A DNA stretch of 63,873 bases, counting the filler. It is 4 parts of 4 records of this genome, joined end to end, with 100 filler letters (N's around TTAATTAATTAA, not from the genome) between each part and the next. Parts side by side here need not be neighbours in the genome. Positions count along the whole stretch, not along the records: positions 31,796 to 58,487 come from SRR2962707_3429; 3 more parts are not named here. The stretch is one strand, 5' to 3'. The translations under genes and the position numbers were made by a program. Each line of letters opens with the position of its first letter. Position 1 is the first letter of the stretch. The notes under the pieces were generated by a model. That model saw nothing but the letters and a program-made list of their open reading frames with translations. It was not told the DNA's origin and searched no databases. Positions 27,126 to 54,300 of this stretch are shown in pieces.

Positions 27126-27132
27126 ATGATTA

Positions 27133-29960: not shown

Positions 29961-29982
29961 GCTAATTCTAAACGATATTTTT

Positions 29983-31608
29983 ATGAAGACCAATTATGTA
30001 AGCCTTTTGTTTTTAATGTTTTTGGGACTGTATGGGTGCAGTTCGGATGATGATGCTGGGAACGGCGGAAGTGAAATGGAGATGGAATATTCCTCTGGAA
30101 CTGCAGATTTTTCAAATTATGTAGCTGTAGGGAACTCATTAACTGCAGGATATACAGATGGTGCTCTTTTTGTATCCGGACAATCAAATTCGTTGCCTAA
30201 TATATTATCACAACAATTTGCACTTGTTGGAGGAGGAGAATTTCAACAACCATTAACTAACGATAATATTGGGGGACTTCTTGCGGGAGGTTTTCCATTA
30301 CCAGGGATTGAAAACAGATTATACTTTAATGGTTCTGGGCCTGCTCGTTTACCTGGGAGTCCAACTACCGATATTGCACAAACCCTTTCAGGGTCATTTA
30401 ATAATATGGGAGTGCCAGGAGCGTTTAGTTATCATTTATTATCTCCGGGCTATGGAAATATAGCAGGTGTAGCAGCTGGGTTGGCAAACCCTTATTTTGT
30501 TCGTTTTGCTTCAAGTCCGTCTACAACAGTAATTGCCGATGCAGTGGCTCAGAAGCCTACTTTTTTTAGTCTTTGGATAGGAAATAATGATGTATTAGGG
30601 TATGCAACTGGAGGTGGTGTTGGAATTGATCAAACTGGAAATCTTGATTATGCTACGTATGCATTAAACGATATTACCGACCCAACCATTTTTGCAGATA
30701 TTTATACTGCTATTGTTTCTGAACTGTCTAAGAATGATGCTAAAGGAATAGTTGCAAATATTCCAGATGTAACGGGGATTCCTTATTTTACAACAGTTCC
30801 TTATGCTCCGTTAGATCCTACTAATCCTGATTTTGGTTCTCAAATTCCAATGTTAAATAACATTTTTGGAGCTTTAAATCAAGTTTATGAGGTGCTTGGT
30901 GCGCCCGAGCGTAAAATAGAATTTGCTACAAATGCCGCAAGTGCTGTTGTAATTAAAGATGAGGCATTAACCGATATTTCTGCTCAAATTGAAGGAGTGT
31001 TAAATGCTAGTCCGACTTTCCCTGCATTTATTTCGCAATTCGGATTACCTGCCCAGGCAGTTCCTCTTGTTGCGAATATATTAGGGCAAAGGTATGGACA
31101 GTCAAGACAAGCAAACGAAGCAGATTTAATAGTATTGCCAAGTAGTAATGTTATAGGAACTGTTAATGTAACCGCATTACAAGCTTTAATGGGAATGGGA
31201 GTCCCGCAGGAATTAGCAGGGCAATTTTCAATAGAAGGGATTACCTTGCCTTTAGAAGATAAATGGGTGTTAATACCTTCAGAACAAGCAAGTGTAAAAA
31301 CAGCTACCGATGCCTATAATATGGCAATTGCTACTATTGCCCAACAAAATGACTTGGCATTAGTAGATGCAAATGCAATTATGAAAATGTTGTCACAAGG
31401 GGGTGGCGTTCCTTTTGACGAATTTATACTGAACAGTAGTTTGGTGTTTGGGGGTGCTTTTTCTTTAGATGGAGTGCATCCTACAGCTAGAGGATATGCC
31501 TATTTGGCAAATAAATTTATGGAAGCTATTGAAAAGAAATATAATGCTGTTTTACCAAGAGTACGAGCGGCAGATTATAATACGCTCTATCCAGCACAAT
31601 TGCCATAA
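29983..31608 (+). CDS. GDSL/SGNH hydrolase lipoprotein
   Basis: Lipobox LYGC, block I VGNSLTAG, block III WIGNNDVL and block V DGVHP. Confidence 0.88.
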   Translation: MKTNYVSLLFLMFLGLYGCSSDDDAGNGGSEMEMEYSSGTADFSNYVAVGNSLTAGYTDGALFVSGQSNSLPNILSQQFALVGGGEFQQPLTNDNIGGLLAGGFPLPGIENRLYFNGSGPARLPGSPTTDIAQTLSGSFNNMGVPGAFSYHLLSPGYGNIAGVAAGLANPYFVRFASSPSTTVIADAVAQKPTFFSLWIGNNDVLGYATGGGVGIDQTGNLDYATYALNDITDPTIFADIYTAIVSELSKNDAKGIVANIPDVTGIPYFTTVPYAPLDPTNPDFGSQIPMLNNIFGALNQVYEVLGAPERKIEFATNAASAVVIKDEALTDISAQIEGVLNASPTFPAFISQFGLPAQAVPLVANILGQRYGQSRQANEADLIVLPSSNVIGTVNVTALQALMGMGVPQELAGQFSIEGITLPLEDKWVLIPSEQASVKTATDAYNMAIATIAQQNDLALVDANAIMKMLSQGGGVPFDEFILNSSLVFGGAFSLDGVHPTARGYAYLANKFMEAIEKKYNAVLPRVRAADYNTLYPAQLP

Positions 31609-31695
31609 AGCAACTTAAATTACAAATTTTGTTATAAATAGAATAAGCAGGTATAATTAAATCCTTCATTGAGGGTTTTATTCCTCAGAGCCTGT

Positions 31696-31795
31696 NNNNN
31701 NNNNNNNNNNNNNNNNNNNNNNNNNNNNNNNNNNNNNNNTTAATTAATTAANNNNNNNNNNNNNNNNNNNNNNNNNNNNNNNNNNNNNNNNNNNN
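31696..31795. other. Artificial contig spacer
   Basis: Same N44-TTAATTAATTAA-N44 linker. Confidence 0.99.
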
Positions 31796-31856
31796 TCATC
31801 ATCATCATCATCATTATCATCATCACCATCACCATCACCATTATCCTGATCATCAT
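31796..31856. repeat. (ATC/CAT)n microsatellite at contig end
   Basis: tcatcatcatcatcatcattatcatcatcaccatcacc...; lies just past the donor at 31901. Confidence 0.9.
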
Positions 31857-31901
31857 AGAACTTGCAGCGTATCTGACAAAACCACAACAAGCACATCGCA
31901 C

Positions 31902-33381
31902 CTGTTGGCGTCAACAGCCAGGAAAGCCTCGTACAGGGTCAAGCCGCGTTCAGCAATCGCTCGGCGGAGAAAACTAACATGCGCTCGATGTTTAAGTGCA
32001 TCGGCCGCGCGCTCGATCTGGAAAATTTGGCGCATTGAACCGTTCGTGGGCTTTAGAGCCATTCGGCGACGACAAGCCATTGAGGACAAGTAAAATTTCT
32101 CACGAAGGTACGGCTGAGTCCGCTGGAGTGTGTGCACAAGTGTGTTGATTGCCGGTTTTGAGAAGTGAGCGTCGTTGTCAAAGAATCTGAATGTTGAATG
32201 CACCACGGCTCGCTGGAATGTAGAGTTCCCGCTTACAGGAGCTGTGATCGTGTTCCGATCACCAGCATTGACTGAACCTGCGGAGTCCCTCTCCACCGTG
32301 GATTCCTGTTAGTGTGTGTGTGAATGTGACACAAGTAGAGTGGCCGTTAGTGTGCAAAAAGCAGGGCCCTTTGTCTTGAGCTGAAACCGACGGACACAAA
32401 GCACCCACCTCTTGTCCAAACAAGTCTTTCCATCGATCTGAGCTGTCAAACACAATTCCGCAAAAGCTGTCTAGACGCTTGTTGTGAATTGCCTGCGTCT
32501 GTTGCTTTTTGCTTGGGTTCGACGTGTCCACGATGGGGGCGGCTGGGCTGTAGCGAAGAGCAATTGCTGAGTCGCTTCCCTCGACAAGAGGTTTCTTAGA
32601 CGATTGTTTCACATGAATGAGGCGACGCAAAGTTTCTGCTTCAGCCAGATTTACAGCCACCCAAAAACGACCTTCCTGCTGCTCAAAAACGCGCCCGCTC
32701 TGCAAAAGACTTTGGAAGGCATCGAATTCCACACACGCCGACCCACCTGTACGAGAGCCGAAAGTTTTCAGGATCTCATCCAGTTGTGTGTTTGATACTG
32801 ACGAAAAAGATGCCATCTCGATGGCATTGCGCAAGTCGGCAGCCGTGAGATGCACACGGCCTTCAAAACTCAAGAGAGTAAAAGCCTTTCGCAATACCTC
32901 CACCTCCTCCTCAGAAACATTAACCACCTTTCGCAAGGCTTCAATCTCGGTGGGGTTGAGAAGCTTTTGACGGACATTTGCCACCGACGGTACCCATTCC
33001 AGCAGCATAACAACATTCTTCAAACGTCGAAGTCCTGTCCAAGAACGATTAAAGTAATTCGTTGAGGCCATGACATACTCAGGGAATTCCATGCTGTTCT
33101 GATGACGCAAATGAAACGTGGACAAGTCGTAAAACGGGTGCAACGCGTCCGACTCTTGTGCTGTGCTGCGTGCGTTCGTCTTCGGATCACCAAGAACAGA
33201 CACTGGCCAATGCGATGGCGCTTCCTTCGTGCGGCTATATTCCCGATCAACAAATTTTTCTACTTCAATTTGTTGATCTTTTTTTGCCTGCACTTCTTTC
33301 TGTTGTTCCTGCTCTTGCTCACGTTCTTGCTCTGTGTCCAAATTAATTTCACGACCGTCAAGCAGCATAAATCGCCCAACC
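31902..33381 (-). other. C-terminal exons of the giant gene: EQE motif and EF-hand-like repeats
   Basis: EQEREQEQEQQKE; LRKAFTLLSFEGRVHLTAADLRNAI...VEFDAFQSLL; LAEAETLRRLIH; LYEAFLAVDAN before the donor at 31901. Confidence 0.65.
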
Positions 33382-36300
33382 TATAAAAGAGTCACAGATT
33401 GTGTCACCGTGACGCAGATAAACGAACAGCAATTAGCAATAAAAAAGAAGTGCCTCTGCAGTTCGAATGCAGTACCTCGTCAAGGATTGCGCTTGAAACC
33501 TCGGTGTCCTTGTCAGCGCGCAAGAATTTTTCGTGCTTGGTCAGCATATTCTGAAGCTTGTCAAGAAAGGGCACAGGATCTGGCACTGCGGCCTCCAGTG
33601 AAAAGTCAATAGCTTCGTCGAACACCTTCAGCTCTTCCGGGCGCTCCTCGGCCACATCTTCCGCATCTTCATTGCTGGGTACTGCACTGCCAAGCGCGGA
33701 TGTGGAAGTGCCATTGGATGCCCGAACCGGGGCGTTTGCAGAAGGTTCCGTCAAACGCGCTTCGTCTTTGTGTTGTGCATCAAAAAGTGCGGACGCCCCA
33801 GGAGAATTGATTGAACCAGGTGAAGCGGGCACGTCCAGTGTTCCCAATGCTCCGGGAGTGGCGCCAGGGGTGGCGGGTACGCTGTCGATACCCGTGAGAG
33901 TGACTGCGGATGCGACTTCTGCAGCATCAAAACTAGAGTTAGCATTGTCCTCGGTCAATTCCTCCAGGCCCGCATCCTCGCCGCTTGCTTCAGCGCGATT
34001 GGTTTCCTGGGCGCAAGAATCCAGCAAGCTTGCAAATGCGGTTTTGCGATACAGGTTTGCAACATTCTGTATGCAAAGCATTGTCCATTGGATCTGTTCT
34101 GTCTGCATTGAACTGATAATAAGCCACGCGGCAATCATCGTCAAACATTGCCGAACAGGCATGCTGGAGACGCGGTCCTGAACGGTGAGGATCTTTGCTG
34201 CCATCAGCTGGCGCTGCATCAGCTCTGCGACTTCGGGAATAATGAACACAGTTACAACTTGGCCTTGGCCTACGTATTAGTAAAAAATACCAACTTTACA
34301 CAGCACCCCGACAACGCTTGACAAGCAAATTGTGCTGGTGCCACAAACAAACCAATGCCTCGCATTCGGTAAGCGCCTTGCACATAGTCACGGAACACCA
34401 TGTCTTTGCCGAGAGTAACTGCCGCACGAGCATTCACACGGTGCTTGATATCCATGCCCGTTGTATGAATTTGATCATAAAAAGCAAACCGCCGTGTGAG
34501 AGGGATCCCGCATTGGTCCTGATTCACAATGCGGCCTGTTGCACGGACGAGAACTTTTTTCTTGTCTTCATCGTCCAAAAACACAACACCATCAAAACCC
34601 TCCAAACCGCGCCTCAACAGTTGCTGTGCAACCTACGAGAACCATGCACGACATTGTCTTGTAAGTCTCAATTGTAATCGAGGCAGAACCATGTGATTTC
34701 AACTTGGGCATGCTTGCCTCTTCATTCGAATACCCTGTAATTAGGGCGCCAGTATCGATGAGCGCATGAAATTCTGGGCTGTGGTTGGCGACCATGTCAA
34801 GCAAACCTTCTATTGTCCACTGCCCTTCCAAATGCTCAACGTCAAAGATTGCAGTATTCAAAATAGTGGACATCATTTTCCCGTCGTCGCCTTCCTCGTA
34901 GTCACACTGCCCCATCTCTTTCGGTAAAAGATCTGAGGGCGTGCCAGAGAATCCGACGCGTCGGCCAAAAAGCATGTCTCCGCCGACCGCTTGCCCACAT
35001 GCTGATATTTTCGTGTGCTGCGACCGCATATGCTTCGGGAAGATGGTGTGTGTTAAATAGTGATAGAGCACGGCTGGGTGATTTCGCCACAAGTGATACC
35101 TGCGAAGAGCCGATGATTTAGCACATGACGGCACGTGACAGAAAAAAAAAAGTCCTTTACTTCACGTACAACTTGTCCATTTGTTCCGAGTTGCTGCGCT
35201 GCAAGTACTTGAGATCCACAACCTCCTTTGAGTCAGACTCTTCATCGTCTTCGGCAGCGTCAACGGCTTTTTGGGCACCAGCAACACAAGTAGATTCGGT
35301 TGTGTGGGGTCCCGCATCATCATTTCCGTCACCGCGAATCGACCCACCAGCGTCAATGACCCACTGTCGGTACCTGAAAAAGCATTGGGATTCAGCTCTA
35401 AGCAAGTGCAGGTCTAGGAAGGTCAACAAGATATTGGTGCAAACGCGTACATCACGCTGGACGGGCGGTCATTTGGTGGGCCGATTTCGTGTGTAAAGTT
35501 GGAGGTAATGAGGTCCATCAAGTCGTTGAAATCTGTTCTCCGTAGGCCTTGATATCGGTACCTGCAGCAGAACGGATCGATGACCCAAACCTCAATTGAA
35601 CCGGGCAGTCGCTGTGCAAAAAATGCTTTGTCTTACGCGAAAATGCTCAGCCCGAGGATAATGTCTGGGTGAGCAAACTCGGACGATTGCGACGGGACGT
35701 CTTTTCCCACGAACGGGACACCAAGCTTTAAGCGAGATGGTGGCAAAAGAGGATCTACCGACTACATTAAAAATAAAGCCAGCAGATTGGTCGGATGGGG
35801 GAGCTAAAGCCAGGAAAATCAGCTTGGGCAAGGTATGGGACGAACCAAAGCGTTAGAGCACTCTTGATCATTAAGAAGCCCAAATGAAACGCGATTAACC
35901 TTCTTCATACAGTGTGGAAGGAATGTGTGAAGCCAATCGTGTGCAAGGTTTAACAACTTCTTCTGATGCACTGGCACCTTGGCCATGACGGATGCAGCGA
36001 GCGCTAATTGGGAAAAGTAACGCCGTTGAGCCATGAGTGTACTTCGCATATGCGCACCAAGTGACTGGAAATGTTTTTTGGACCGCGCTAGATGGTGCGG
36101 CAACCACAGGTTATCAGGGACAGAGAGAGCATACATCACCTTTTCTGCGGAATCGCGAGGTTGTACAATCTAAATGCACACACATTCAGGGAGTGACGAA
36201 GTCAGTGCGTGACACAATTCGCGCCTTGGCTAACAAAGTTACTACTCCCTCCACACCTGAAAGTCTCCTCCGCCAAGCTTAACATAGCCCTCCCATGTTG

Positions 36301-39300
36301 TCACTGCGTCAACAGCCACAGCTCCTGGGGAGTGCGGCACACCTGGTGAGCCTGGTGTCATGAGCGCCCCGTTAAAAGCGTCAATCGAGCCAAGCACAAC
36401 TATGCCAGCGTCGCTGTCCACCAACGAATCAGAGGCATTGCTGACGGCTTCGAGAAGCGCCCCCCAACTTCGAACTTGACCCAAATCAACCTGCACAGCA
36501 CGCCCTCGAAGCCGGGCCCAAACTTTGCTGACCGGTGCCGGATCACCAACTGGTTCCAATTCAGTTTGGTTTTCGGCAAGAGTTTGCATTTTCGATGCAA
36601 ACTTGTCAACGTGCTCCAAAGCGGCGTCAATCTCAGAAATGTCTTTATCGATTGCAATTTTCAACGATGAGAAAATGCCCAGCAGAGTGCCTTGGTGTGA
36701 GTTTGAGGCAGCTTCGTGTTCGTCAGCCAGCTTGCGCTTCTCTGCGTCCAGTCGCTCAACTTCCGCGTGTTTGGCAGCAATTTCTGCAGCCGAAAGAGGA
36801 ACAATTTCTTCTGGTTGCTCGCTTGTGAACGAGCCCTCGACATCAACCCAGCTGACACATTTTGACGCTTTGCTATGAACCTTGCAATAAAAACAGCCAT
36901 CGATGCATGAGTTCTAAGTAAGCAGACTGAACATTTTCGGTTGAGTTCCAGCAACACACACGACGCACCTTGACGCGTGCGGACCAAAAGAACGAACGAC
37001 CTGCGTAGTCAAGAGAGCTTGACGCATCAAATGCTGAAAATCGGTCTGGGGACACAACGCCATGTTTTCGTGTAAACCCAGGGCCCCAGCTCGAGGTTAA
37101 ACCAGCCAAAGCGCCAGATATCTGGTCGACAGTAATCTCTGTCTTCGCGTGGGCATTGAGTTGCATATTGCCGCTGTTTGTACCGAGCGCACCGACCGCA
37201 GAGTTTTGATTATACCCAAAATTGGAGCTAAAACTACCCGAAGCAGGTTGACCAAACCTACCACACGTGCAGCTTGTCACTAAGCCATTCGACGCCCAGG
37301 CACAAACAAGGTGCAAAATCAATACTAAAACGTCCAATGAACGCACTTGCTGTTGAAACCCCCAAATGACGGCTTTCCGAAGGAACTTTTGCTGCCAAAT
37401 CGATTCTGGCCACGGCTGGACTGCTTCGCGTAGTTGCACACGTCGAAGATGGCACAGCGAAATTTCTTGCTCACATGCAACTCTTGGATGCGCGCTGTAG
37501 CCTCTTTCACGGTGTCGCATTGGCGTACATAAAAACCCATGGACTCGAGATCTGAGCACAACGTGCGTACATCAGCTTCACCGCTACCAACAGCAGCCTT
37601 AGAACCAGCACGATTGCCACTTGCAGCGGACGCAAAAGCTGATGACACCACCACAACAACCTGTAGTTCCCATAACACTCTGCGTAACTCAAGAGTAAAT
37701 CGCATCCTCGTCGCGCAACCAAGCCCAAGATTCAAACAGCACTTTTGTTACCTGGTTGAACATGGAGTCATCCGGCGGGCATTCAACGTTGTCAATTTCA
37801 GCCTTCAGCTTCGTAATGCGCCCGAGCATTTCGCCCATAGCTTCCCCATGGGCTTTAAGTGTGTCATCGCGCGATGCCTCGGCTGAGAAACTGAAAAATG
37901 CAAAAAATGCAAATCAAGCGCGAGCCATGCTCCAGTCAACAGAACACCAGCTCCAAAAAAAAACCTTTAGGCCAAACCGCTTCACTTACACATCGTTGAT
38001 CATTTGCAGACGCAGGCTACATCGCTGGATGCCCGCCTCAAAAAAGGCTTCTTGCTGCTTGTAGTACGGCGCAACGTGGGCAGTGGCGCCAAAAGTCTGA
38101 CTGAGGCGCTCTGCGTCCTCTCTGAGGTCATTCAACACTCTGAGTGACAAACTGCGTGCTGCTGCACCATCCATGATGTATCGAATCTATCATCACAATT
38201 CGGCCGCCCAGCTCGAATTAAGAGCGATTCAAACGCAACAATGGCGCAAGCGTATTGAAAACATTTTTTTTGTCATGAATACATACCGCTTCAGCGCGAT
38301 CCACCCCGTGCAGATGGTTTTTTTGCAGCCACAAAAAGGCCCATTCGGCCAGAATGGGCTTGAGCACATCAAAGTAAAACTCGAAGTCAAGAAGCGTGAT
38401 GTGGGGCAGCCGCTGCAGCGACCGACGCTTGTACCCATCCACCACCGCCATTTTGAGTTGCCTTAAGATTGTGAGGGCGGCTGATGACGCTTCGAATACA
38501 TAGCTGGGTATAAACCGTACATGAAGAAACAGAAAACAGAATGTTCAGCACAGACTCTGGCAGGCACGGGGACAACAACACAACACACGAGAAAAAATGG
38601 GAGAGCGAAGCACATACAGCTTGCTATCGAGATCGTTACTCGCATAGAAAATAGCGTCGATGAGATGAATTGGCAGCGACCATCGTTCCCCGCGTTCCGA
38701 CCCATCTAAGTCGAACTTGGCACCAATGGGAAAGTTCAGCTCTGACTTGAGCGGATGCAAAATCAGGTCAACCTCGTCCAATAACATGACACCTCCGCGG
38801 AACAGTCGTAATACCTTGGTGAACTCGCGCACCTACGAAGAAAGGAACACGCAAAGTGTGGGTAACAGTTGCACAACAACCTGAAACCAACAATATTCTT
38901 TTGCAACATCATTCAAAGGTCAGCATGCCTTTTGGTTCTGTCGGTCCTTCGCCACCTTTTTCGAAAGTTCTGCTTTTGCGTTGAGTGCTTCAATGAAGCA
39001 CAGCATGATGGATTTCACTGACGTGGGCGTTGCGACAACAACTCCGCGATTTTCAACGCAATTCTGAAGAGCGCGATACCTTCATTGGTGCGAGCAAGAT
39101 TAACGAGGCAGTTCACTTTGGGGCAAGAGATCCAACCAGTCACGCCATGGACTCACATTGCTGGACGGATATGGGAAGAGCGATCAAATTTCAGTGTGTA
39201 AATGCGTTTCGCCATAATGTTGGCGAAAGTCTCACGCATCAACGTTCGGCTCATTTCGAGTAGTGCTCGGGGAACAACCGACAAAACGAGACTGTGACCG

Positions 39301-42300
39301 TCCGCCAGCATGAGGGCCAACATAGGTGCAACAACTGTAGTCTTGCCCTGACCCATAATCATTTGCTTCACCTTGGAGCGGCCACTCGCCAGTGTCTCCA
39401 TAAAGTTGTCGACGATAATGACCTGTCCGGGAGTGCGAAAGAAAAAACATACCTTTAAGTGGCAATCACCACAAGCAAAGTGCACAGCTGCCCAGGAGCC
39501 TCAAGGCGCGCACCTGGTTTTTGCGCAACAGGATATTCCATACAAATTCGAACACTAGGAAGCGTGGATCATACTGCAAGGTTGTCTTCGGTGAACTTGG
39601 CGGTGCAGACTTGCTGTTGACAAAGTGCCGCTTAGTCAGTAGAAGGGATGCAAAAATTGAGCACGACTGCTCGATGTTTGGACGAAGAGCAGCATGATCA
39701 GATTTGGCTTCGGCAGTTGAAAGGTGCAAAGCGTGGTCGATACGGTCCAAAAGGTTGTTTCCCGCAACAATGCATCGGTTTGTATGCCCCAGCCGTGAAC
39801 CACGCAATATACACGCAACCGACACGTCCAAAATTGTCTGCGTCAACTCTTCTGCAATAAATGGGTTCACACCCCGCAAATCTTCAACGTCTTTGGTCGA
39901 CAACAAGGATCGATACCTAAGCATGTCCATTGGATGCATGTGACAAACAATGGCAAAACTCGGACAAAGAGTGTTCGTTGCAAAACGCGAGGCAGGTTGC
40001 AAGCACAACCAACTTACAACAAGTTCATTCGAATGTGCGACTCTTGCCCTGCTAAACGCTGCAACTTAAATTTCAGCTTTTGTTGCACTGCATCTGCTTG
40101 ATCTTTGCACTTGCCGTCAAAGAGCACCGCTGACTTCAAACCAACGTTGTTGGCTGCGGCTTCCACGAGTGGAGGTGTTGCCTGGGCGCCAGTTGAACAA
40201 AAGAGCAAGTCAGCAATTCAATTGTGGCAAACGAGCGCGTTTTTTGCCAGGCTATTCACACGACGCAACACAATACCTCAACGATTCGGGCATCTTCCGC
40301 CTTGAGTTTTTCCAGTTCGCGAACCACTTTCACGATTTTCCCGCGAGCACGCCGCAGTTTTTTCTGTGCAGCTTTGTGGCGCAATGAGTCCCCTGAGAAC
40401 AAATCGTCAAACAGCTGGGAAGATAACTCGGCGACAATGGCTTTTCGTCGATTTTTGCGCTGCTCCGCAACGAAAGCTACGTCCTTTTCCATGCGAGTGA
40501 TCATCTAGGTCCCGAACAGAAAGACAATGGAAAATTTAGTGCCGCGTCAAGTTGTGGTGCAAGCCAACATTGTGAAAACACATTTAGAGTGCAACAAACC
40601 TGTAAAGCGACTCCACTTTTTGCATCGGGGTGGCGGCTTACATCGAACGGAAGTCGCGAAAAATTCCCGTTGTCACCATCGCCAGAGGCATGCTGCTCGT
40701 AGGACAGCACGCCCAAAACGGTATCGTGGTCTTGCAAGGGGTGCCCTGCGAGCGCATCCAGCGTGCTTTGAGATGTCGTGTATGACATGCACTCTTGATG
40801 CGATACTTGAATTTTTTCCATGTTTGACTCAAGCTGCGCCAAAGTAATATCGCCTACAACCAAGGAATCCAACATTAAATCCCAAAACTCGCATAACTCA
40901 CGAATTGCACAAACTTCGCTGAAAAAATGAGCACCTGCACCCTTCGGCGTGGCTTTCTTGTCGCTTGTCTGGGCATCGGGTTGCTCGTCATCAAGGTCTT
41001 CTGAATCATAGCCCGATGTTTTATTCTTTTTGTCAACTTGACGCGAATCATCGTCATCAAAAATTGTAACGTCAATACTTTGGCCAAGAACTTGGCGCTC
41101 TGCAACCGTCGAGCTCTACCACAGAACCAAGCAGATTAGCGCAGGTTGAATGACATGAGCGCTTCAAGCAAAGCAAAAAAAAAACAAAAAAAAACATATC
41201 CCGTTCAAAGAAACGCTTGCGAACATGCCTGCACTATGGCGGCTGTTAGAGCCACGAGCGTTGCTGGACCCGCGCCTTCAAAAACATGAACAGCACGGTC
41301 AATGTTGCTTAAAACTTTCTTGCCGTCCCTTTGTACCATTCTTGGACGAAGAACAACGATGCTCGGGAGCTTTTTCACGCGGTATCTAGTGCAGAATTCA
41401 TTGCAGAAAAGCTCAACACGCCAGCCCCTCACATTTCAAGCTTCCAAACACAATTGCACAAACCCCATAAATAAGATGATTCCGGCACACATACCTTTCA
41501 GCAAGCCCGTCGCAGTCGTCAATATCCACGGAGAACACACGAACAGTCGGAATTTTCAACGCAAAAATCCGCATGGCTGGAGCAAGCGCTTGGCACTGTG
41601 GGCACCAATTTGCATGAAATTTGACAACTGCAAGCAAACCGTCCTCACTCGCTCCATCGTTGGCATTGCTGTCTTCACCCACGCCGGACACGGCAACGTG
41701 TTTCATGGCGTCTTCGAAGCTTTGCATAGTGTCCACCTGCAATCAGGTATGGAACAGGAACGTACTTGAAGAAAAAAGTGGCAAGATGCAAACTCATCTC
41801 GCATGAAACACCGAAAACATGGCTACTGCGATGCTATTGCGTTCGAAAACCGACCTCTTGAATTGGCATTGGAAGTAGGCGCGTGCTGTTGGTGTCTGTA
41901 AGCGAACTGAGAATTTGCCATACGTTGGATGAAACACTGCTCTGCGTCTCGTGCTTCAGCAAGTCGAAGAGTCTTTCGTACGCGTTCGCGGTGACTGGTG
42001 CGAGGAACCGTTTGGCTCGACTAAAATCTGTCACTGTCAGTTTGTTTTTCTTGCTTCCAAAGCCTCCAGCAAAAACGGACTTACGAAGGAGCACTGGAGC
42101 AGCACCCAACGTTTCTTGAACTGGCAAGTCCTCGGTCTCGAAAACTTTAAAATCTCGACGCGGCATCATATGTTTGGGGATGTTGCAGCGAGTTGGGTGA
42201 GGCTTCAACTCTGGATAAGGAGGTTTCGGCGGCGCCTTTAATACACCACGAGCCTTCTTTAACTTGTCAAATAGCCGTGTAACAAGCAGCATATGCCGGC

Positions 42301-45300
42301 CCAGGTTGCAGTTAGGCTCCGCCTGGTCCTGCCAACCATTGTGGACGGACGAGCGTTGCAGTTTTCGCGTATCACGGTAACTGTGAAGACAAAAGCCATG
42401 GATTCAGCATGTTCAACACACTTTTTTTTCGCATAGTTTGTATTGTGGACAACGACACCAACAGTCACTTGCTTACCGCGGCATTCGCACACAAGCGCTA
42501 CGGTTGCGGCTCAGGACGTTGACGATGGAGCCACAAAGCGACTTTTCTCGTGAATCTGCGTACAACTGAGACAAAAGAAGAGCCAGGCGTGGAGAGTCCG
42601 AGGAGTACGATCCCCATGCAGTCGTGGCTCGAGCTTTAATGCTGCCTTGCAAGAGATGGTACAAAAACAAAAAACCCAGCCCCTGTTGTGCTCCACACAT
42701 CGTCTCGCCACCTGTCCAGACTTTCTGAAGAACTTCAAGGCAACTTCGTCCTCGCAACCCATACACTTCGTTGTAATTCAGGGACAGAAGTTCAATTTCT
42801 CGCTGCAAGCCCTTTGAACGCAAAAGGAAGCGCCGAACAGGAACCTGGGGATGACAAATCATAAAAAAAATAACGTGGCAAGCAAGCAACATATTTCTGC
42901 AGTTCTTGAAGTTCTTTCTTTTAACACAACTCACAGAATTGCCATCGTCAGCGGCACATGACCCATCATCGCCGGCGGCATCGGTCTTGGGAAAGAATGA
43001 GACTGCATACTTGTGTTTGGCATCGAGTGTAATGTACCTTTTCCGTTCACCATCCGAAACAACACAATCACACGTCAGGTGTTACTTTCAAAAAAAAGCA
43101 TGCGGAGTCGACCCTGCTGCACAACGTACGCATGCACTTCGTGTTCTGCCCAAGTGCCCTGTGATTTCTTGAACGAAGCGCGTGGAAGCCCGGGCAAGTT
43201 TTGACACCGATGTTGGGTGTGGTGTTGCCAATTGGATCCACATTTCAAGCAGTTGCCATCACTGAGGTGAGCACTGTCACAATCAGGTCCACAGCCGTCT
43301 GGTCCGCCCTTGGGAACAGACTTACGAAAGTCTCCGAAACTGCAAACGTTGAGGCAGGCAGTGGTGAAAAGGGTGTCAAGTCGGCATTCCACAAAGACGT
43401 GCGGCTACATGATCACAACGTACGCTTCTTCCAAATTGTCATTAATGGAGGCAGGTAGCTGAACCCAAACATTGTCTTTTCCGAAACGTTTGATCATCCA
43501 CACGGCCTCCTCAAGGCCGTCGTCGTCTGAGGGTGCTGTTTCCTTAACCTCAAAACCGAAATTAGCTTGACCGGCCATGTCAACAACACGAAAGTCTTGT
43601 GCATCGACCACAATCTCGTACGTTGATGGGGCATTGGGTGTCCCATTAGTTGCTGTACTGTTAGCAGTGGTCGCGGCGGTCGATCCAAAACTAAACCCAC
43701 CACCACTGGAGCTGGCAGAGTCACTGAAAGCAAACCCGGCCGATTTTGAGGCTGCAGGGGCGCAAACAGTATCGCTTTTGGTCGCGGATGAGGTCGAGGC
43801 TCCCCCCCCAAAGCTGAAACCGCCCTTGCTGGCTGCGGGCTTAGCAGCAGCGCCGCCAAAACCGAATCCCCCTTCACCTGAATGTGAGGTCGAGGCGCCC
43901 CCTCCAAAGCTGAAATCGTCATTGGTGGCTGTGGGCTTAGCGGCAGCGCCACCAAAACCGAATCCACCTTTACCTGAAGATGAAATAGAGGCGCCAGCCC
44001 CAAAGCTGAAACCGCCTTCGGGCGTAGCAGCGGCGCCACCAAAACCGAATCCCCCTTCATCTGAAGGTGAGGCAGAGGCGTCTGCCCCAAAGTGGAGATC
44101 GCCTTTGCTGCCGTCGGGCTGAGCTGCAGCACCACCAAAACCGAGTTCGCCTTCATCTGAAGATGGTGCTTCCCCAAAGCCGAAACCGCCTTCGCTGGCC
44201 CCGGGCTGAACCGCAGCGCCGCCAAAAACGAATTCACTTTGACCTGCAGATGAGGTTGGGGCGTCATCACCAACGCTGAAACCGCCTTTGCTGGCTCCGG
44301 GTTGAGCGCCACCAAAGCCGAACTCAATATTACCTTTGGATGATGTCGAGGCGCCATCCCCAAAGCTGAACCCGCTACTTGTTGCGGGCTGCTGCGTCGT
44401 AGCGCCACCGAGACTCATGCCACCCTTGGTGCCAAAGCAAAATCCGCTCTCGTTCGCAGGCGGGGGAGGTGCGGTACCAACAGCAACAGTTCCACTTCTA
44501 TCTTCGATTGCGGTCAAAGAAGCAGCTGCTTTTTTACGCTGCATCGCAAACACTTTTTCCAGCGTGAGCCTATGCTTTTGAGGGTCCGCAGTTTCAGGAC
44601 CTCGCTGCCCACTTCGACTCGTGGACTTGAAACTGGCCGGCATTTTTGGCGCCCCGAACCCAGTGAAACCACTGTTCGCATTCTTCGCTCGTGACTCTTT
44701 CGACAGCTCTGGCTGAACGCTGGAGCCCGAAACTGGCGCATCCACGACGACCAGCTTCAACAACTGTTTCGGTTCGCTGGCATCATCCACTCCTTCGCCT
44801 CCTGTGTCCGCTTCAGCCCCGCTCGATGTCCCATCATTGTCCACTGTCCCGACTGAATTGATTTTGACGAGCAAATCCTCTGTGTGAAGTCCATCAGCTG
44901 AGGTCACACTAATAGAGAGCACAGCTCCAGGCACCAGCTGAGTTGTCGACCCATGAGTGGCAAGAGCTCGCTTTGCCCGCTCTGACAGTTGCAAAGTAAT
45001 GGTGGGATATCTGCAAGCACACAAAAAACAGCAATGAGCATATTTCTTTCGTCATACACGTTATAACTCTCATGGCAGGCCATTCGTGCGTGTTAAGCGA
45101 CACACGGCCAAGCCGCCACGCACCGCACTCGCATTGCTTCCAGCGAATCCTTGACCTTTTTCCAAATTTTCTTCAACTCGTGGGCACTTTGGTTCTTCAG
45201 TGCTGACACTGGCAACTTTGTGACATCAGCGATCTTTTGGAGTCGACTTGCTGCCAACTCATCGCCGTCAACATCCCCGCTCTCGTCACTGTCGCTGTCT

Positions 45301-48300
45301 GATTCGCTGTGGTCGGTAAGATCGCAAAACGAACCACGCTGTCCGAATCTTCCGGGACAACTATGTCCTAAATGCCGATTAAACGCCACAGAGCACTGTG
45401 TGCACTTTGCATTTTGGTCATGATCATCATTGCAAGTGGAGTCGCATCCACGCTCAATCGGCCGTCCCGACCCCGAGGCAGCAGCTCGCTGCTTATCAAG
45501 TTTGCGAATCCTCTTTTCCAAATCCTCGTAAAACCCATCCACGGGACATGTCATGATCACTGGGTACCTAAAACACACACCAAGATGAAATTTTTCGAAG
45601 CAACTTCCAGGATGCGAGGATTTTCGAAATGCAAAAGAAATGTGCAGACGAACACAGCAGCGGCAGATCCCAGCCGGTCAAACATGTTCGAAAAGGAACT
45701 TAAGCGCTCATCCTTTGCCTGCGGTGGACCGTCGGATACTGGGCAAAACTTGACAGGTGCTCCATCCAGTTCAAAGGACATCGTGCCGCCTTGAAGCGAT
45801 GTGTCAACGACCACTGTGACCACTGAATTTTGTCCGAAAAATAGCACAGGATTGTCTGACACTGTTGCAGATGCAGAGTTGACTGCATCGTCTTGACAAT
45901 CGTCCTTAGTCTTAGTTTTCAGAATTTGAGGTGTTGCTTTCGAGAGCATTTTGCTCGTGTCTGGATCTGGCTTGGGCTCAACAGCAACGGCAATTCTAGT
46001 GCCACGGAAAAACAAGTCGCCATTGGCGTAAAGTGCGATGCTATCAGCGACATGATAATTTCGGGCAAGGGTTGGCAACTGCACATCAAGTCATCGAATC
46101 ACGGACACGTAAGTGCAGTAAGTGCCATCCATTCAAAATACAAATGAACCTCGTCCATTGTCAACTCCGAGCAAGCGAAACGTGCCTGGGATGGCCCAAA
46201 CGAGTTAAAGCGGGCGGTGCACACGCCGACTGCATCGCAGCTTCCTTGGCGTCCGGGCTTGTGGGCAAAGTGGAGATCCCATCGGTGAACTCCTGTGAAA
46301 GGTTCAATGCACATGCCGCCACGAACAGCTTCGACGTCAACACCCCTGCGTTGAAGAAGTTGCATCTTGAGGCGGATTTCATCAAGATGGCTTCGTCCAT
46401 CATCATCCGCATTCGAGACCGTTTTCTTGAGAAAGCCTGCGTCCGGACCCGCGCACATCTCTCTTTTGTTGCAGCAAGATTCGCACAAAAAGCATACACT
46501 ACAGCGCCTGTTGCCCGTTTGTTGGGAGGGGCCAAACATGTTGCACATCTTGCATGATGCCATGCCAAAGCTGTTTGGATTAACACTGCGCCAATCTTGC
46601 AGCTGATGCGTCTGGCCGCGCTTTTTTTCAGCACTAGAATCGTCTCCACCAATGTTGAGCTTGATGGTGAACCCCTACACAATGAATCAATCAAGAACGC
46701 GCTTCAATTGATGCCATACATCTTCGAAAACATTGCAAAGACGGGAAATACGAACTTGATTGTCAAAAGTAATTCGCTCTCCGCGGTGCTCTTCATCCCA
46801 GACCCACGGTATTTCAACGGCTTCTTCCGAATCGTCTTCAGGACCAAGCAACGAACGCCTCTCTTCTTCTTCCCGGCACTGTTGCAGGCGATAGATTTTC
46901 CGGTCAGTCGCCGTGAGCGTGAGTTGGAGAGCTGTCGAGAGGGCTTCAACCACTTTTTCTGCTGCTTGGGAATTGCCAAAAGTGAGCGTGAAGTTCGAAC
47001 CAGTATCTACGGGTCGTAGCGTTGAAAGGACTTTGTTCTTCTGGTAAACAACAAACGTTGGAAACCCTGAAACGCCGTTGATGGCTTCTTGATGCTTTGT
47101 CCAGCGAATCGCATCAGTCTCAACGTGGACAAAGCGCACTTGCCCAAACTGAGCAGCAACATCGTTGACACGCCCAGTGATTGCAGCGCAATCTTTCATC
47201 CAATGCACGTAGTAGTACCTGCAAATCATCCATCGTGGTGAGCGCCAAGTGCAATGGGGGAAAATGGCCTTTCAGGCTGCTTCCGCGAACAAGTTAAATA
47301 ACGCACACGACCACCAGTCTGTGCGCTTCCTTCGGTAGATCGGCGCTCGCGACAGAGATTTCGGTTTCGGGTGGATAGTCGACAATCCCCGCAGCATTCA
47401 AGTCAGCTAACGCGTATGTCGAATTTTCCAGAACATGTAGCAGTTGCTCTTCATTCTTTATGGATTCAACGGAGTCGTACTTCGCTCCAAGCACCTGCAT
47501 TGGGGTAAGAATGTTCAGATTCCACAGTAGATGCTTGACCGAGCAAAAAGGAACATTGCAGCACCTACCGTGTTGTCTTCATAATACACCCACGGTGTGC
47601 CGACGATGCGTGGCGGGGCACAGCATATCATGGAACACTCGCCTGCATGTTTGGCAGCAGTATCAACGGTATCCGTGACTCCGTCAAGGGTTTCAGTGCC
47701 GTATTCGGTAAATTCATTGGGAGCCCGTTCGAGACGGGCGACGGCACGCAAGCAGTGCAGTCTGTTGAAAATTAGCGTGACCATATAATCTGTGTGCTTG
47801 GAGTGGTTGAAGAATAAACTTCGCCTACTTTTCGCAACAGCATGCTGCTCAAGCAATTGCACCTCCTCGTGAAGCCTGCACACGCCACACACAGTAAAAC
47901 AAGCCAGATGATATTACAAAGCAGGTCTGGTAGAACAGAACAGTGCAGCGGCGTCGTTAGTGTGGCAACAATGTCAGTGCGGCAATAACATTCACGACGC
48001 ACTCAATCTGCGTGGTCGCGCTGACGTGCGCAACCTTGTTGATAAACTTGGCTGCCTCGATGGTGAGGTCCCATGGAGACGGCATGGGCGCCTCCATCGT
48101 TGCAAGTGAGACTTTTAGGCGGCACGCATGAGCGTCAGGGTGCGCGTCGTCAACAGTAGCTGACAGCCGATTGAAAACCTGCATGCACAAATCCATAGCT
48201 AAGCGCGCCAAAAACTGGCAAGCGATGCAAAAGTCACGAGAAAAAGAATTGGAAATACCTGCATCCCTTCTGGCGAATATTTTGTGTCGGTGGCGATGGA

Positions 48301-51300
48301 ATCCACCAAATTGCTCACCTGAACCAGGCACCACGAAAAACGAGCAACAGAGATAAAACAGTGTCAAGAACAATACTAGAACACATTGTGCAGCACAAAG
48401 TTCGTCACATGAAGAAATCGAAAACGCGAACTTGCCGTTGCGTAATCACGGTTCAGAAAGCGGAGCAGCAACAGATAGAGTGCCGAATTCACCCCACGAG
48501 TCATCAAAAACGAAAGAGAGAGATGAACTGGATACAGATAGTAGCGCTGAGTCAGAGCTCCATACCATTTCTTGGCCTCGGGACTGGTTCGATCCATTAC
48601 CAAACGAGTAGAAAAAGGCCTGCCTCGAATGGGGGGTCTGACGGGGCACATGACAGGAACCAAGAGCTGTTTTTCGTCTTGGGCATTAGAAAGAATCAAA
48701 GCATGAGGGATTCCTGCGACAAGGCTCGTAATCAACTCATGTCGCGCATTTGTGATGAACAAATCGGCATGATCCAGAGAATACAGGCGCCCACCGCGTG
48801 GCTCAAAAACAAGCTTCAAGCGTGGAAGCTCCACACACTTGATTGGTGCAACACCAAAAAGAATGGTGTCATCGAGTGATGTGGTCAGGTTACCCGCATG
48901 GTGCATGCGGAGGCATTTGTCCAGTGTGGTCCAAGCCGCAATGTACGACAAATTTTCAACCCGTGCAAGTGTGACGGCAATAGAGTGAAGGCTGGACGCA
49001 CGAGGGGCATACCTGGTGCAGCAGCATCACAACATGAGTGAATGCAAAAAGGCGACGCTCAAACCTGTCGGCAACCGAACCATCGCAAAAGCTGTCACGC
49101 ACAACAGATTCACGAGAACTTCCACATCCTCCGGCTTTATCACCGAGGCATCATTCACAACTACGCGCGATCCATCCACGCTTTCTGTGCCAGAATGCCA
49201 ATGAGAATGTGTAAGTGCTTCATGCCCAAAAGTTCCACCGAAGCACTGCAAGGGAGGCAACGCAACACCAACCTCGATGTGCTCCAGCGCCAACTGGTTG
49301 AAGAATTTCCATATCATTTTCGGCCGCTTGCTGGTGAATGGCCTGCACTAGCTCATGGACGGTGCCACAGCGAGCAGAACTTCCCAGCAGATATGCTTTG
49401 TAGCGCGTCAGCATTTTTTCAACATGATCTTCACAACCGCCACAGCTGGTGACATCGCGAAAAGCAGCATGAAAAAAAAGCAGCAACCGCATTTATTGAT
49501 GGAAACGGCAAAAACGATGACGGCTTCAACAACGAAGCAATTCATGTCCTGACGTACTTCATGAACAGTAGCACAAGCTGTTCGAAGTGACCAAAGTGCA
49601 AGCGGTCCTTTTCCACATTGTTGCCTTCTGCACTTCGGGTCCCTCGCCCAGCGGGATTCCATTCTTCGTCTTCATCATCAGTCATTCCTTCCCAGTGGTA
49701 GATCCCCTCACCTTTGTTGGGTTTGCGTTTGGCTTTGCGCATTGTTCGAAGCTGTGTTTCTTTGATGTTCTCTTCACGAGCGTTCGACAGTGCCAACTGA
49801 ATTTGATACCGAACCTCCCCATTTACGACAGCTACCCCGGTGACTGTCGCCTTCAATAAATTCAAAACGTTAGAAACCGTCAGAGAACTCGTTGCCAATC
49901 AACGCCCATCAACTCCCCGATTCTCACTCCAATTCAAGTGCTTAGAAACCTACCGCTACCCAACGCTTCTCACACTCGTACAACACGAGTTGGCCGTGTT
50001 TGAATTTGGCGGCAGCATCGTTATTTCCCTCATCATCCTTGCGACTCTTCCGTGAAACATCTTCTGTTGGCACATCGTCGGGTTCTTTCGTTTCGTCATC
50101 ACTTTCTGAAGGTTGTGCTCGGGTCTCTTTGTGCTCTGGTTTGGGAGTCAGCAGTTGCAGCGACTCAAGGTGCGCTGCTACTCGCTGATGAATTGCGAAT
50201 TGAGCCTTGGCCTTTGATAGTGGAATTCTATACCGGCATAAAAGCACACGTGACTTGGTGACCCCGCTACAACAACCAAAGGAAGCAGAACGAAGATGCA
50301 ATCGGTTCGCACCGAAATACGCGAATGGTTCGCCCTGGCATTTGCGTGCTTTCCAAAACAGCCGCACGGCGCTGCTGTTTGAACACAGAGTCAAACTCGC
50401 CAGCATCTCCAGCACTGGCCGAAACGGAAGCACTGCTGGATGCGCCCGCGCCGAGAAATTCGTTCCAGTCCCCGACTGCTCCAAACTCAATGATAATTAG
50501 ACTGTCTGACTTGGCTTCATCGATAGGATAACCACGAAGTCGCCGATGATATCTGACATTGTGGATATTGACCACACACAATGCGTTTACCTGGGCTGAT
50601 AAGGCCAACCAGTGCATCCCACGGAGGTGGCGAGCGCTTTGCGAAACAATCATTGCACGAACGTGTACTGCTCCAGTAGAGGCTCGGATGATTTCCAATT
50701 GTACTTTGACTCATCTTGCCAAAATCGATACTCAGACAGAATGCAGTCTGGCACAATCCCGAAAAGCAAGCGTTTCGGGATGAAGGTTTCTCGGCCTACA
50801 CACGCACGCGTTGAGAAAGAACATGAACACGCGAAGGTGCTCGCATGCGCGCACAGATAAAATTGCGCCAGCCGCACCTCCAGACAAATTTTGCTCATGT
50901 GTGGCGTCTCGAACAATGACCACACTCTGAGCGTTTCCGGTACGCTGATCGTTGAAAAGCTGGCCGACAACGCCGGTGGGGTACGGCATCCCGGAACCAT
51001 TCTTCCACCAATACGGATCAGGGCCACGACGCCGTGGTTCAGTGCTGCAAACGTGCACGGTTGCAACAACGGGAGCTTAGCTGCACTCCCTGAAAACTCA
51101 CGTGAACAGCGTGGCACAATATAAAAGCGTTGCGGACCTGATCTGCATATCACGCAGAGTGTATCGCGTGTCGGTGGTAAGGTGCAGGCTCCACCACCAC
51201 TGCCGACCGTGAGACAAGCACTCATAAACGTGGACGCATTTCAGGCGTCGAAAGATATACACCAACTTAAATGGCCCTCCCAAATACTGGTGTTCTCCCA

Positions 51301-54300
51301 GAAGCACCGCCATCTCAGCGTTGGCAGGAATTGCCTGCACACATGCAACGCAAAGCACAGACGTGAATGTGGTTGGAACTGTTTTCGAAAACCGTCGCCT
51401 ACAATGATTGCAATAGCAAAAACTTGCCTTCTCAGGCATAAGAAACGTCATTGCCGGAGGCTGGGGTCCATTGAAAAAGGATGTGCGGACAGGCTCAAAC
51501 AGGCTGGCAACCCAGCTCTCGGATGCGAAAAGCTCCGACGGGTCGTAAGTGCGCTCCCATTGATCTGCCATGGGAGCTGTTGACTTTTCTGGAGTGGACC
51601 ACATTGTGACACTGTGTTTTAAACCGACCAGCCGATGTGTCTGCCATGCAACACACGTCGTCAAGGGAGCGAGATGTCAGACAACGCCATGAAAAGATCA
51701 ACACTCGCACCCCAAACCGCAAAGTCCAGCTGCGCGACGACCGAAAATTCCAAAAACAAAAGGCCGAGCTTACCTCACAGTGGATTGCTTGGCTCAACTG
51801 CGAGGCCTGGATTGTTCCACAGGCACCGAATACAGTTTTCATGTCAGGGTGCTGAAGAATCTCAGGCTTCAGTGCCGACAGATGGCGGTTCCTCAACGTC
51901 ATTTGTCCAAGCTGCAAATCAAGCTCGACGCCAACGAAAGCCGAATCAGCTACCTCCCCAACTGGAGTTTCCCACGACGCCTGCCGTGTGAGCTCTGGTT
52001 GAGAAATGCCAACGTCGTCATCAAGGGCGGTTGATGAAGTCGGCTTTTTCAAAATACTAACGCCAACGTTGTCCACATCCTCAGCAGCCACGTTGCTGCG
52101 AGTGGATGCAACAGCGTAGCGCCCACGGCAACGAGAACCCGAGATTTTGCTCCACCGATTTTGTGTATCAGCATGTCGATGAACAAATGCTCCTGCCGCA
52201 GATGTGCTTATCTCAAGAGAAGCTTGCATGGCGCTGTCCAATGGTCCCTGTTTCCTGCCATCGCACCACATGACCAAGCGGCGGCGCTGCACTTTCAAGA
52301 CCTCGTACAACTCGTTTTCCTACGATATCACCAATAAAATGCGAAGGGATAGTTGAGAAATAGAAAATTTCGCCACCAATGGCGGCCGACATTAGTCACA
52401 AGTCACACACCGGAACAAGAAGGTTGCCCTTCCAAGTGTGCCTGGTGGTCAAATAGACAAAACTGGAGAGGATGTTCTTCAAAATGCGGTTAAAGCTCAG
52501 TGAAGCACTGGATTCTGAAGGTAACACATCGCTATGCGAGACAAGCGGATCATCCGGGCGCACGTTGCGCAACACAAGCAGTTTGTGTGTGTGCAGATTG
52601 CACGCAAGCGCTGATTTTGCAGTGAGCAGTAAGTGGTTTGGTCCAGTCTTAGAACTGCTTCCAGCCACGATGTCGCGGTCAAGTTTTTTTAGGTACCTTA
52701 CGACCGACAAAAAGTCAAGGTAAAAAAATTGCAAAACTGGACATCAACCGTCAATTCCTTCCAGCATTGTCACACAAAAAAGCATCCAACGAAGCGCTTT
52801 TCCAAAGACTCACGAATCCAACAAATCCAAAAAACGCCCAAACAGAAGGCTGCGGAGTTTCATGCGGGCACCTTGCAGGATAGCCAACGTCTCATCGCTC
52901 ACGAAAACGCCACGCAATTTGAAGTTATTTGCATTGATTGTTGCATGTGTATTTGTGGTGTGCTTGAGTCACAACATTCACAATCAAGCGTGACATTCGC
53001 ACGCAACATACCTCGCGCATGAGCCCAGTTCAAAAACATACAATGCAAGCCAAACAACATGAACGGATGCAAGCTCGCACCTGGATGAGGAAGGATAGAT
53101 AATTGTCAATGCGGGCGCCGAGACGAATGATGTAGAGAATAATCAAAACGCCGCTATTGAATTGAGAGCCTGAATCATCCGTCACCGTCCCGGTGTCGAG
53201 TGCTAACGCACCTTGCACCAAGCGCATGATGGCATCCATCACAGGCACAGGGCTTTGACAGAGCTCGTTCAAAAGAAGCCCGTACCTATTACGCGGCAAC
53301 ATACTGAGACCAAATTCCAGATTCAGGCACCTGGATGATCACAGCGCAACAGAACACGTACGGGGAAGCCAGCAGATCAGGATGCTTCGTTGGAACCATG
53401 ACTGGAGCAACACCAATCATCCATAGCTTCAGGTGCACGCCCGGCTCAAACAAAACACTGTCCAAAATGAAGCGGAGCTTTTCACTTTCAAGTTTGTGAA
53501 CTCGATCATCGGTTGAGAAAAACGTCACAACGAGCGGCAAACGGAGGTACGGCACTGTGAGATACGAAATTAAGAGTTCCGAGTCTCGCTGTCCAAGCAC
53601 CGCCGGACCATTGTCCTACGGAAACCAACAAATGACATTCGTCAGATGCAATCTAAAAAGGCGATTTCAAGACCGCATGTATAAAAGTCACCACGGACTT
53701 CGTCTTGGAAACCAGGAAGGTTTGGCCGATAAATTACATCATCTTCAGTCTCAACTTTGGGCTCTGGAAGATAGAACGACGGGGTCGCTGTTGATGGGTA
53801 TCGGTGGGTCGGTGGTGGCAGTGCGTTCCCTGCTGAGTCTGTCCGCACTTGCGGTGCGCACGATAACGCGGTGCCACTGAAAGCCTGCACGTTGTACCTG
53901 TGCCAACAAAAATGAAAACGCAGGAGTGCTGTTGTCTCAGAACGGCTGATCCTGGACCGGCAGTTGACGTCGAGCAAGGAGCACAAATTGCTCACTTACG
54001 CCATGCCTTGCCAACCCCACACGAGTTGGCAGTCCATGCGATGAAAGTCCCGCCGTGAACTTGTCAGTGCTGACCGCGCTGCCAAGTCTGGATTCAGCAA
54101 AAACTTCCAGAAAAAGCAAATATTCTGGAACCTGCCATTCAAACGAAAAAACAGCTTGAAAGACGAAAAAAATTATCTTTCACCATCTGAGCAAAGCCTG
54201 AAAGACCAAGCTACCTACGCGCGCAGCTCTGGGTAGTTGACATGGAGAACTGAAACCTGGCAGAGAAAAGTCACCACATTTGTGAATTCCAATCGCACGG

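Follow-up and report, generated by a model that had tools for sequence, protein, structure and literature searches.

The nuclear pore barrier works by means of phenylalanine-glycine (FG) repeat domains, whose phenylalanines provide multivalent contacts both to carriers of the importin-beta/NTF2 type and to other FG domains. FG proteins are also found outside the components of the pore, as with AGFG1/HRB, an ArfGAP with FG repeats, and trophinin. A helicase example comes from Caenorhabditis elegans: according to PMC3063144, GLH-1, -2 and -4 are Vasa-like DEAD-box helicases that combine an FG-repeat domain with zinc fingers, whereas GLH-3 has no FG domain. That source proposes that the GLH FG domain extends the pore environment, reports that it contributes to granules, and names trophinin as a non-nucleoporin FG protein (PMC3063144). 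Here we describe an FG-repeat tract in a 63,873-nucleotide (nt) stretch of DNA made of four joined contigs (the window). The tract lies on the minus strand at 43690..44675, within a gene for a giant ATPase that carries the domains DUF3638 and DUF3645; its host is a protist. FG repeats outside nucleoporins, and FG repeats on a superfamily 2 (SF2) ATPase such as GLH, are already known. New aspects are the host, an uncharacterised family of giant P-loop proteins, the internal placing of the tract and the clear evidence that it replaced an ordinary acidic linker. Publications on DUF3638 or DUF3645, as judged from titles and the beginnings of abstracts, contained nothing on FG repeats. We give an even chance to the reading that the tract is a lineage-specific FG domain that would tether the giant ATPase at pores or perinuclear FG assemblies, by analogy with what is proposed for GLH-1, -2 and -4.

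The FG exon is translated as part of a single giant gene

The FG exon spans 43424..45010 on the minus strand. It is 1,587 nt long, has 528 full codons that correspond to model residues 3175-3702, and lies about 1,000 codons upstream of the DUF3638/DUF3645 P-loop. The transcript evidence is based on public run X1, the sole run that contained DNA of the giant gene. This run yielded a single intron-less contig of 22,884 nt, on the minus strand, which covers all of 32200-52199 with 48 joints; the 15 joints listed have GT..AG ends, apart from one GC..AG, after permitted shifts. The FG exon forms one piece of this contig (record 9659-11245) with no other letters and no gaps, so that the single long exon proposed in an earlier note made from the letters alone is indeed one exon. 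The intron-less contig is best explained as an assembled mRNA.

The contig coordinates also supplied length constraints for a splice model, namely 869, 681 and 2,258 exonic nt between anchors. The constrained model uses canonical introns of 77-118 nt and leads from stop-free upstream exons through the FG exon to a thioredoxin exon and the P-loop exon, with a continuous frame over both splice junctions of the FG exon. The upstream intron (45011..45123, minus strand, 113 nt, GTGCGT..CAG) and the downstream intron (43340..43423, minus strand, 84 nt, GTACGT..CAG) are each supported by an end of the contig piece (45010 and 43424, respectively), by the length-constrained model and by the sequence. 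That the frame lacks stops follows from the method itself; the information lies in the existence of exact-length solutions with ordinary splice sites. The full model is an open frame of 6,666 codons running from 57735 to 31856 on the minus strand with 61 introns of 70-135 nt, and it is cut at both ends of the contig (31796..58487). Upstream of 49010 the model is unconstrained, and in 32200-52199 it has 46 introns compared with the 48 contig joints, the two missed introns lying between 49010 and 52199. Early unconstrained splice models were discarded because they conflicted with listed joints or needed introns of 45-59 nt, and tblastn exon hints were dropped because they ran through introns.

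The same transcript and open frame contain the enzyme, as the earlier note had proposed in placing the tract inside an NTPase. On the minus strand, the DUF3638 exon (39157..39422; Pfam PF12340, E-value 2.9e-18, 66.4 bits against a cut-off of 31) includes the P-loop (Walker A) GQGKTT at 39353..39338. It is followed by the LLDEVD exon (38618..38832; splice model, with a contig joint at 38618), whose Walker B-like motif lies at 38784..38769, and further downstream by the DUF3645 exon (35637..35761; PF12359, E-value 1.5e-13, 50.3 bits against a cut-off of 25). Thioredoxin domains (PF00085) lie on both sides of the tract, again on the minus strand: an exon with the motif WCPQC downstream (41495..41736; match over 41736..41497, E-value 5.2e-09) and a thioredoxin-like exon upstream (46756..47218; E-value 1e-05, 25.9 bits against a cut-off of 23.5).

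Mis-assembly readily affects repeats, and further frames of this repeat are open as well, for 183-306 codons (43494-44414 on the minus strand and 43571-44122 on the plus strand), which might suggest that the repeat is an assembly artefact or that the exon belongs to a separate nucleoporin gene. The additional open frames are a side effect of the repeat and no evidence of more genes. The identical 1,587 nt are present in an independent intron-less contig, with no difference and joined to both neighbours, the frame runs through both splice junctions, and orthologous exons start and end with the same flanks. Because one contig and one open frame hold the FG exon together with DUF3638, DUF3645 and the thioredoxins, the two scenarios, which the earlier note had itself named as fatal to its proposal, are excluded, and we attach hardly any residual probability to them. 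The FG tract is thus a translated part of one giant gene, spliced in frame.

The transcript contig runs about 3.1 kb past 32200, whereas the DNA contig stops at 31796 (region 31796-32305). The gene is therefore cut in the assembly, with its 3' part missing, and the protein is larger than modelled; the stop of the model at 31855 probably lies inside an unmodelled intron.

Composition and origin of the FG tract

Translation of 45051..43405 on the minus strand, like the DNA itself, displays the GFSFG and GFGFG motifs that had drawn attention to the locus. The exon contains 22 FG dipeptides in 528 amino acids, 19 of them (12 as F-x-F-G) in a core of 259 amino acids (44445..43671). The tract had been put at about 330 amino acids, a span corresponding to exon residues ~112-440, from GFTGFG to the last GGGFSFG; the dense core is shorter than this, and the insertion relative to orthologues, at 371 amino acids, is longer. 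According to composition, unit listing and shuffles, the dense FG core (43684..44445, minus strand) consists of about 15 units of 13-16 amino acids in which FSFG-GGASTSS-G-GG alternates with FGFGG-AAAKP-x-KGG, and motifs are spaced 11-16 amino acids apart. Its 254 residues are rich in glycine (26%), serine (16.5%), alanine (15.7%) and phenylalanine (11.4%), and phenylalanine is the sole aromatic residue (29 F, no W, no Y). Only 31 residues are charged (21 D+E, 10 K+R; net -11).

At the DNA level the tract is still alignable, as had been noted: Tandem Repeats Finder reports a tandem repeat at 43787..44375 (minus strand) with a period of 96 nt, equal to a double unit of 32 amino acids, in 6.4 copies with 73% matches. 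The tract originated by tandem duplication of the 32-residue double unit FSFG-GGASTSSxGxGG + FGFGG-AAAKPxxSKGG. Between five aligned double units the pairwise synonymous divergence (dS) is 0.26-0.60, which means that the expansion is not very recent; the recent expansion suggested earlier holds in relative terms only.

Such a repeat could have grown without any function of its own. In this explanation, slippage or unequal crossing-over lengthened a linker that is indifferent to sequence and merely separates two modules, and the FG motifs have no partners; we regard it as quite possible, if short of probable. The pooled ratio of nonsynonymous to synonymous differences (pN/pS) among the five double units is 0.73, indicating weak constraint, and one phenylalanine has been lost in two of the five A-type units, with a further unit outside the alignment reading LGFG. 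Set against this, the 19 FG dipeptides of the core exceed what its composition predicts (mean 7.4, s.d. 2.2, maximum 16 in 10,000 composition-preserving shuffles), and no window of 260 amino acids in the model outside the FG exon has more than 6. The core FGFGGA is invariant in all five B-type units at dS 0.26-0.60, while the spacers diverge. Every phenylalanine codon is either TTC or TTT, which means that much of the motif conservation is accounted for by identity by descent, and the pattern fits a weak, position-specific constraint on the FG motif without proving it.

A second FG cluster in another linker of the same protein also speaks against a purely neutral origin. The earlier note had pointed to extra FG motifs near 37200-37400, and these are found at 37211..37402 on the minus strand as five FG in about 35 amino acids, in two halves, RFGSKSSFGKPSFGGFNSK and FGQPASGSFSSNFG, split by an 89-nt intron (37258-37346). 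At this site relatives have a Cys/His motif or unrelated sequence. The presence of a second patch in another variable linker hints that FG sequence is favoured in the giant protein.

AlphaFold2, run with a four-sequence alignment, predicts no secondary structure for exon residues ~110-460, where the predicted local distance difference test (pLDDT) score is below 50. The tract shows the properties by which FG nucleoporins are recognised: many FG motifs, short hydrophilic spacers and, in a low-quality model, a region without predicted structure. An uncharged and disordered chain with about 15 FxFG motifs would probably not be inert to transport receptors, which again disfavours motifs without partners.

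The linker and its flanks in relatives

A search with the P-loop exon retrieved 96 DUF3638 proteins, mostly metagenomic fragments, of which the best is 87% identical; none has more than four FG dipeptides. Eight relatives span the position of the tract, comprising three orthologous exons (P0099, P0100 and P0102) and five distant proteins (P0050, P0054, P0065, P0066 and P0068), and FG repeats are present at that position in none of them. The impression that FG tracts are not a usual part of this family thus agrees with the data, and the family evidently works without FG repeats.

The linkers were compared between the conserved anchors VVDAP and [FY]EI[TV]VD. In the window this linker has 371 amino acids, 20 FG and 8% D+E, while the linker of P0099 has 59 amino acids (no FG, 54% D+E), that of P0102 21 amino acids (no FG, 57% alanine) and that of P0100 ~85 amino acids, rich in serine, proline and glutamine and devoid of FG repeats. 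In the five distant relatives, the stretch from the upstream domain to a WWE domain contains a disordered linker rich in D/E, a conserved short helix and the ARVTIVSPVP motif; P0065, P0066 and P0068 are single open reading frames of ~1,440 amino acids that cover both sides of the FG position and the thioredoxin and run into DUF3638, which independently supports the placing of the tract within the ATPase gene. On sequence comparison, the tract was inserted or expanded in a hypervariable linker once the lineage had separated from relatives whose flanks are ~50% identical, and it looks like a young, lineage-specific sticky linker rather than a feature of the family. The variability of the linker (poly-alanine in P0102, acidic in P0099 and in the five distant relatives, Ser/Pro/Gln-rich in P0100) is what a sequence-indifferent spacer would show, and the absence of the tract from near relatives makes neutral expansion a serious rival.

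Further searches added no relative with the tract. The N-flank (exon residues 1-190), searched against proteins of 290-924 amino acids, matched the window's own protein only, which is also in keeping with neutral expansion, and the C-flank had no match among proteins of 925-2,640 amino acids; these searches thus yielded no full-length annotated orthologue to scan for FG. A metagenome scan returned 81 pattern matches and three confirmed loci, each from proteins already found, and the ESM Atlas, queried with the relative P0054, gave no usable match.

The sequences on either side of the tract had been described as folded domains. AlphaFold2 does predict strands on either side, but a hairpin at exon residues 500-525 is the only part where confidence rises to 73-78. 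The N-flank (YPTITLQLSERAKR ... LLKLVVVDAP; 44695..45010, minus strand) is conserved in the orthologous exons and has low-confidence predicted strands; the orthologous exons begin alike, with FPTIHIK.SERAKR where the window has YPTITLQLSERAKR, and share the end module VWMIKRxGxDNVW with it. The matches of P0099, P0100 and P0102 to the FG exon are confined to the C-flank (YEIVVDAQDF ... AVWMIKRFGKDNVWVQLP..NLEEA; 43426..43617, minus strand), the best-conserved part of the exon, which is 39-53% identical to them, has pLDDT 73-78 and resembles WWE in motif and position.

The module after the tract (AVWMIKRFGKDNVWVQLP..NLEEA, resuming past a Cys/His insert as ..YITLDAKHKYAVSFF..DDGNSVPVRRF) has a WWE-like look and occupies the same place as the WWE of relatives, which scores 22.0 in P0054 and 23.5 in P0050 against a Pfam cut-off of 21.1. 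The C-flank itself matched no Pfam family at E<=1, WWE (PF02825) included. An hhalign comparison of the C-flank with the WWE region of relatives was collinear (E-value 0.018, probability 2.5%), BLASTP of P0099 and P0100 against P0050 and P0068 gave no match, and a second AlphaFold2 model, made for the WWE-like module, was of low confidence (mean pLDDT 45.5). The insert is encoded by the next exon (43130..43339, minus strand; sequence and splice model), whose Cys/His motif (CGPDCDSAH..CLKCGSNWQHHTQHRC) lies inside the WWE-like module. The pattern GC-x3-C-x3-H-x5-C-x2-C-x6-H-x3-H-x-C occurs twice around the tract, at 45449-45350 and 43296-43200 on the minus strand. P0100 contains the motif too, as does P0054 at its C-terminus; it matches no Pfam family but looks like a zinc-binding module.

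Several other features of the gene and its relatives deserve mention. An SGF29-type Tudor-like domain stands just before the acidic linker in P0050 (34-98) and in P0054 (N-terminus), with WWE after it, so that the Tudor-like and WWE 'reader' domains of these two proteins flank the position equivalent to the FG repeats. The giant ATPase has two thioredoxin-fold domains, of which the downstream one keeps the active site WCPQC (41607-41595, minus strand), and the arrangement of thioredoxin with DUF3638 is recurrent in many metagenomic relatives. On the minus strand, two introns are GC..AG among the GT..AG introns, one at 34632-34717 (a listed joint) and one with its donor at 46185 (deduced from a piece end and the length constraint). 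Relatives conserve the segment 37660-37403 (minus strand; ..LESMGFYVRQCDTVKEATARIQELHVSKKFRCAIFD) ahead of the second FG patch, which appears receiver-like by eye, and an apparent SPRY-like domain was seen upstream by eye alone; neither had a Pfam match. The idea that DUF3638 giants carry a herpes-tegument-like deubiquitinase was not borne out: a passage search of PMC9741609 gave no mention of giant, ATPase, NTPase or DUF.

The four contigs of the window are separated at 16554-16653, 31696-31795 and 58488-58587 by the same linker each time (44 N, TTAATTAATTAA, 44 N), and G+C content shifts abruptly from contig to contig (62%, 33-38%, 50% and 40-43%). Only 31796-58487 is eukaryotic, and according to linkers, transcript contig and splice model this contig is filled by the one minus-strand gene. 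The other three have dense long open reading frames of bacterial families, with an Mrp antiporter and a PAS histidine kinase in 1-16553 (62% G+C), a TonB-dependent receptor, a GlmS-type enzyme and DUF4270 in 16654-31695 (33-38%), and a LysR regulator and adenylosuccinate synthetase in 58588-63873 (40-43%). As the assembly mixes bacterial and eukaryotic contigs, the neighbours in the window have no physical linkage to the FG gene.

Possible function and comparison with known FG proteins

To place the tract among known proteins, we used an exhaustive HMMER search of the FG exon against 1.84 billion representative proteins. The 11 matches comprise the window's own protein, the three orthologous exons and seven FG-repeat proteins, all seven of which match the tract (E-values 7.7e-07 to 7.6e-04), in line with the nucleoporin-like character first ascribed to it. 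Nucleoporin-type Pfam domains are present in four of the seven: P0105 has Nup54, P0101 and P0107 have two RanBP-type zinc ribbons each, and P0104 has Nucleoporin_FG above cut-off, together with a Vint domain. In addition, P0108 has a weak Nucleoporin_FG match, and no Pfam family was found in P0103 and P0106.

If the tract acts as it does in nucleoporins, it would be an intrinsically disordered, low-charge and cohesive FG domain with about 15 FxFG-type motifs, whose phenylalanines could touch carriers of the importin-beta/NTF2 type, as well as other FG domains, at many points and weakly. Carrier binding and partition into FG phases would then tether or concentrate the giant enzyme at nuclear pores or perinuclear FG-rich assemblies, and the FG domain would be a lineage-specific addition outside the core mechanism of the family. 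A bolder version, which we think unlikely, is that the tract and the second patch might enable this protein, which exceeds 700 kDa, to enter the pore's FG phase by dissolving in it without a carrier, as a resident ATP-driven remodeller or for its own transit, and that this ability was gained independently of GLH. The functions put forward in the earlier note, namely docking at the pore, binding of karyopherins or viral capsids and formation of condensates, are plausible conjectures, tempered by the absence of FG repeats from every relative sampled.

Several results weigh against such a role at the pore. None of the eight spanning relatives has FG repeats, and the pN/pS ratio and the lost phenylalanines indicate that constraint is weak. 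The seven matches to the tract are themselves weak and rest on low complexity, and the open reading frame of the FG exon matched no Pfam family at E<=0.01, Nucleoporin_FG (PF13634) included. Pfam scans were run exon by exon on 58 exon or open-reading-frame translations (24 + 26 + 8), a procedure in which domains split by introns can be missed; among these translations no pore-anchoring, Ran-binding, importin-related or transport domain was detected, the domains sought being the Nsp1_C/Nup54 coiled coil, RanBP zinc ribbon, Ran-binding domain, autoproteolytic domain and beta-propeller. Both AlphaFold2 models are of low overall quality (mean pLDDT 40.5 and 45.5), so that low confidence in the tract is weak evidence of disorder. 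Finally, the library type of run X1 is not on record, and its 'RNA' label is a guess.

The glycine content invites a different explanation, in which the FGG and GFGFGG units serve, independently of the pore, as RGG/FGG boxes for RNA binding or for self-association of the ATPase in cytoplasmic granules. Glycine makes up 26% of the core and many motifs are followed by G (FGG), the host is an SF2-like ATPase whose relatives have weak ResIII matches (at or just below cut-off), relatives have Tudor-like and WWE reader domains, and GLH FG domains contribute to granules according to PMC3063144. The units contain no arginine, however, and a core with 10 K+R in 254 residues and a net charge of -11 is unfavourable to RNA binding; nor was an RNA-binding domain found in the exon-wise Pfam scans. 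We consider this explanation improbable.

Returning to the tethering of the ATPase by an FG domain, its wider interest lies in the fact that non-nucleoporin FG cases such as the GLH helicases bear on how cells extend or exploit the pore environment. The tract here and the acidic linker of close relatives form a natural comparison of a giant enzyme with and without FG, which bears on the location of the enzyme, its binding and condensates and could offer an initial way into the cell biology of the DUF3638/DUF3645 family. Were the expansion neutral, it would show with what ease FG-like sequence arises in disordered linkers, and would be a warning against inferring pore function from FG density alone.

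How far do these features agree with those of known systems? With FG nucleoporins (the Nup54/Nup62/Nsp1 class and Nup153-like proteins with RanBP zinc ribbons) the tract shares F-x-F-G cores 11-16 amino acids apart, spacers of Gly, Ser, Ala, Thr and Pro, phenylalanine as sole aromatic residue and a predicted lack of structure. In contrast to theirs, it is internal to an ATPase of more than 6,600 amino acids in which no anchoring domain was found by the exon-wise scans, and it is not kept in relatives. AGFG1/HRB and trophinin have folded domains unrelated to those of the window protein. With other DUF3638/DUF3645 giants (PF12340, PF12359) the protein has in common both domains above curated cut-offs and the GQGKTT and DEVD motifs, whereas all eight spanning relatives have, at the corresponding place, a linker that is acidic or rich in Ala or in Ser/Pro. 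The resemblance to GLH-1, -2 and -4 extends to an FG domain on an SF2-type ATPase outside the pore proper, to Cys/His zinc-type motifs between FG domain and ATPase, and to the existence of kin without FG (GLH-3 there, all sampled relatives here). The two differ in that the window ATPase is of the DUF3638/DUF3645 type, with no DEAD or Helicase_C match in the exon-wise Pfam scans of the window exons, that the protein is about ten times larger and has no known link to germ granules, and that its FG tract is internal whereas that of GLH is N-terminal.

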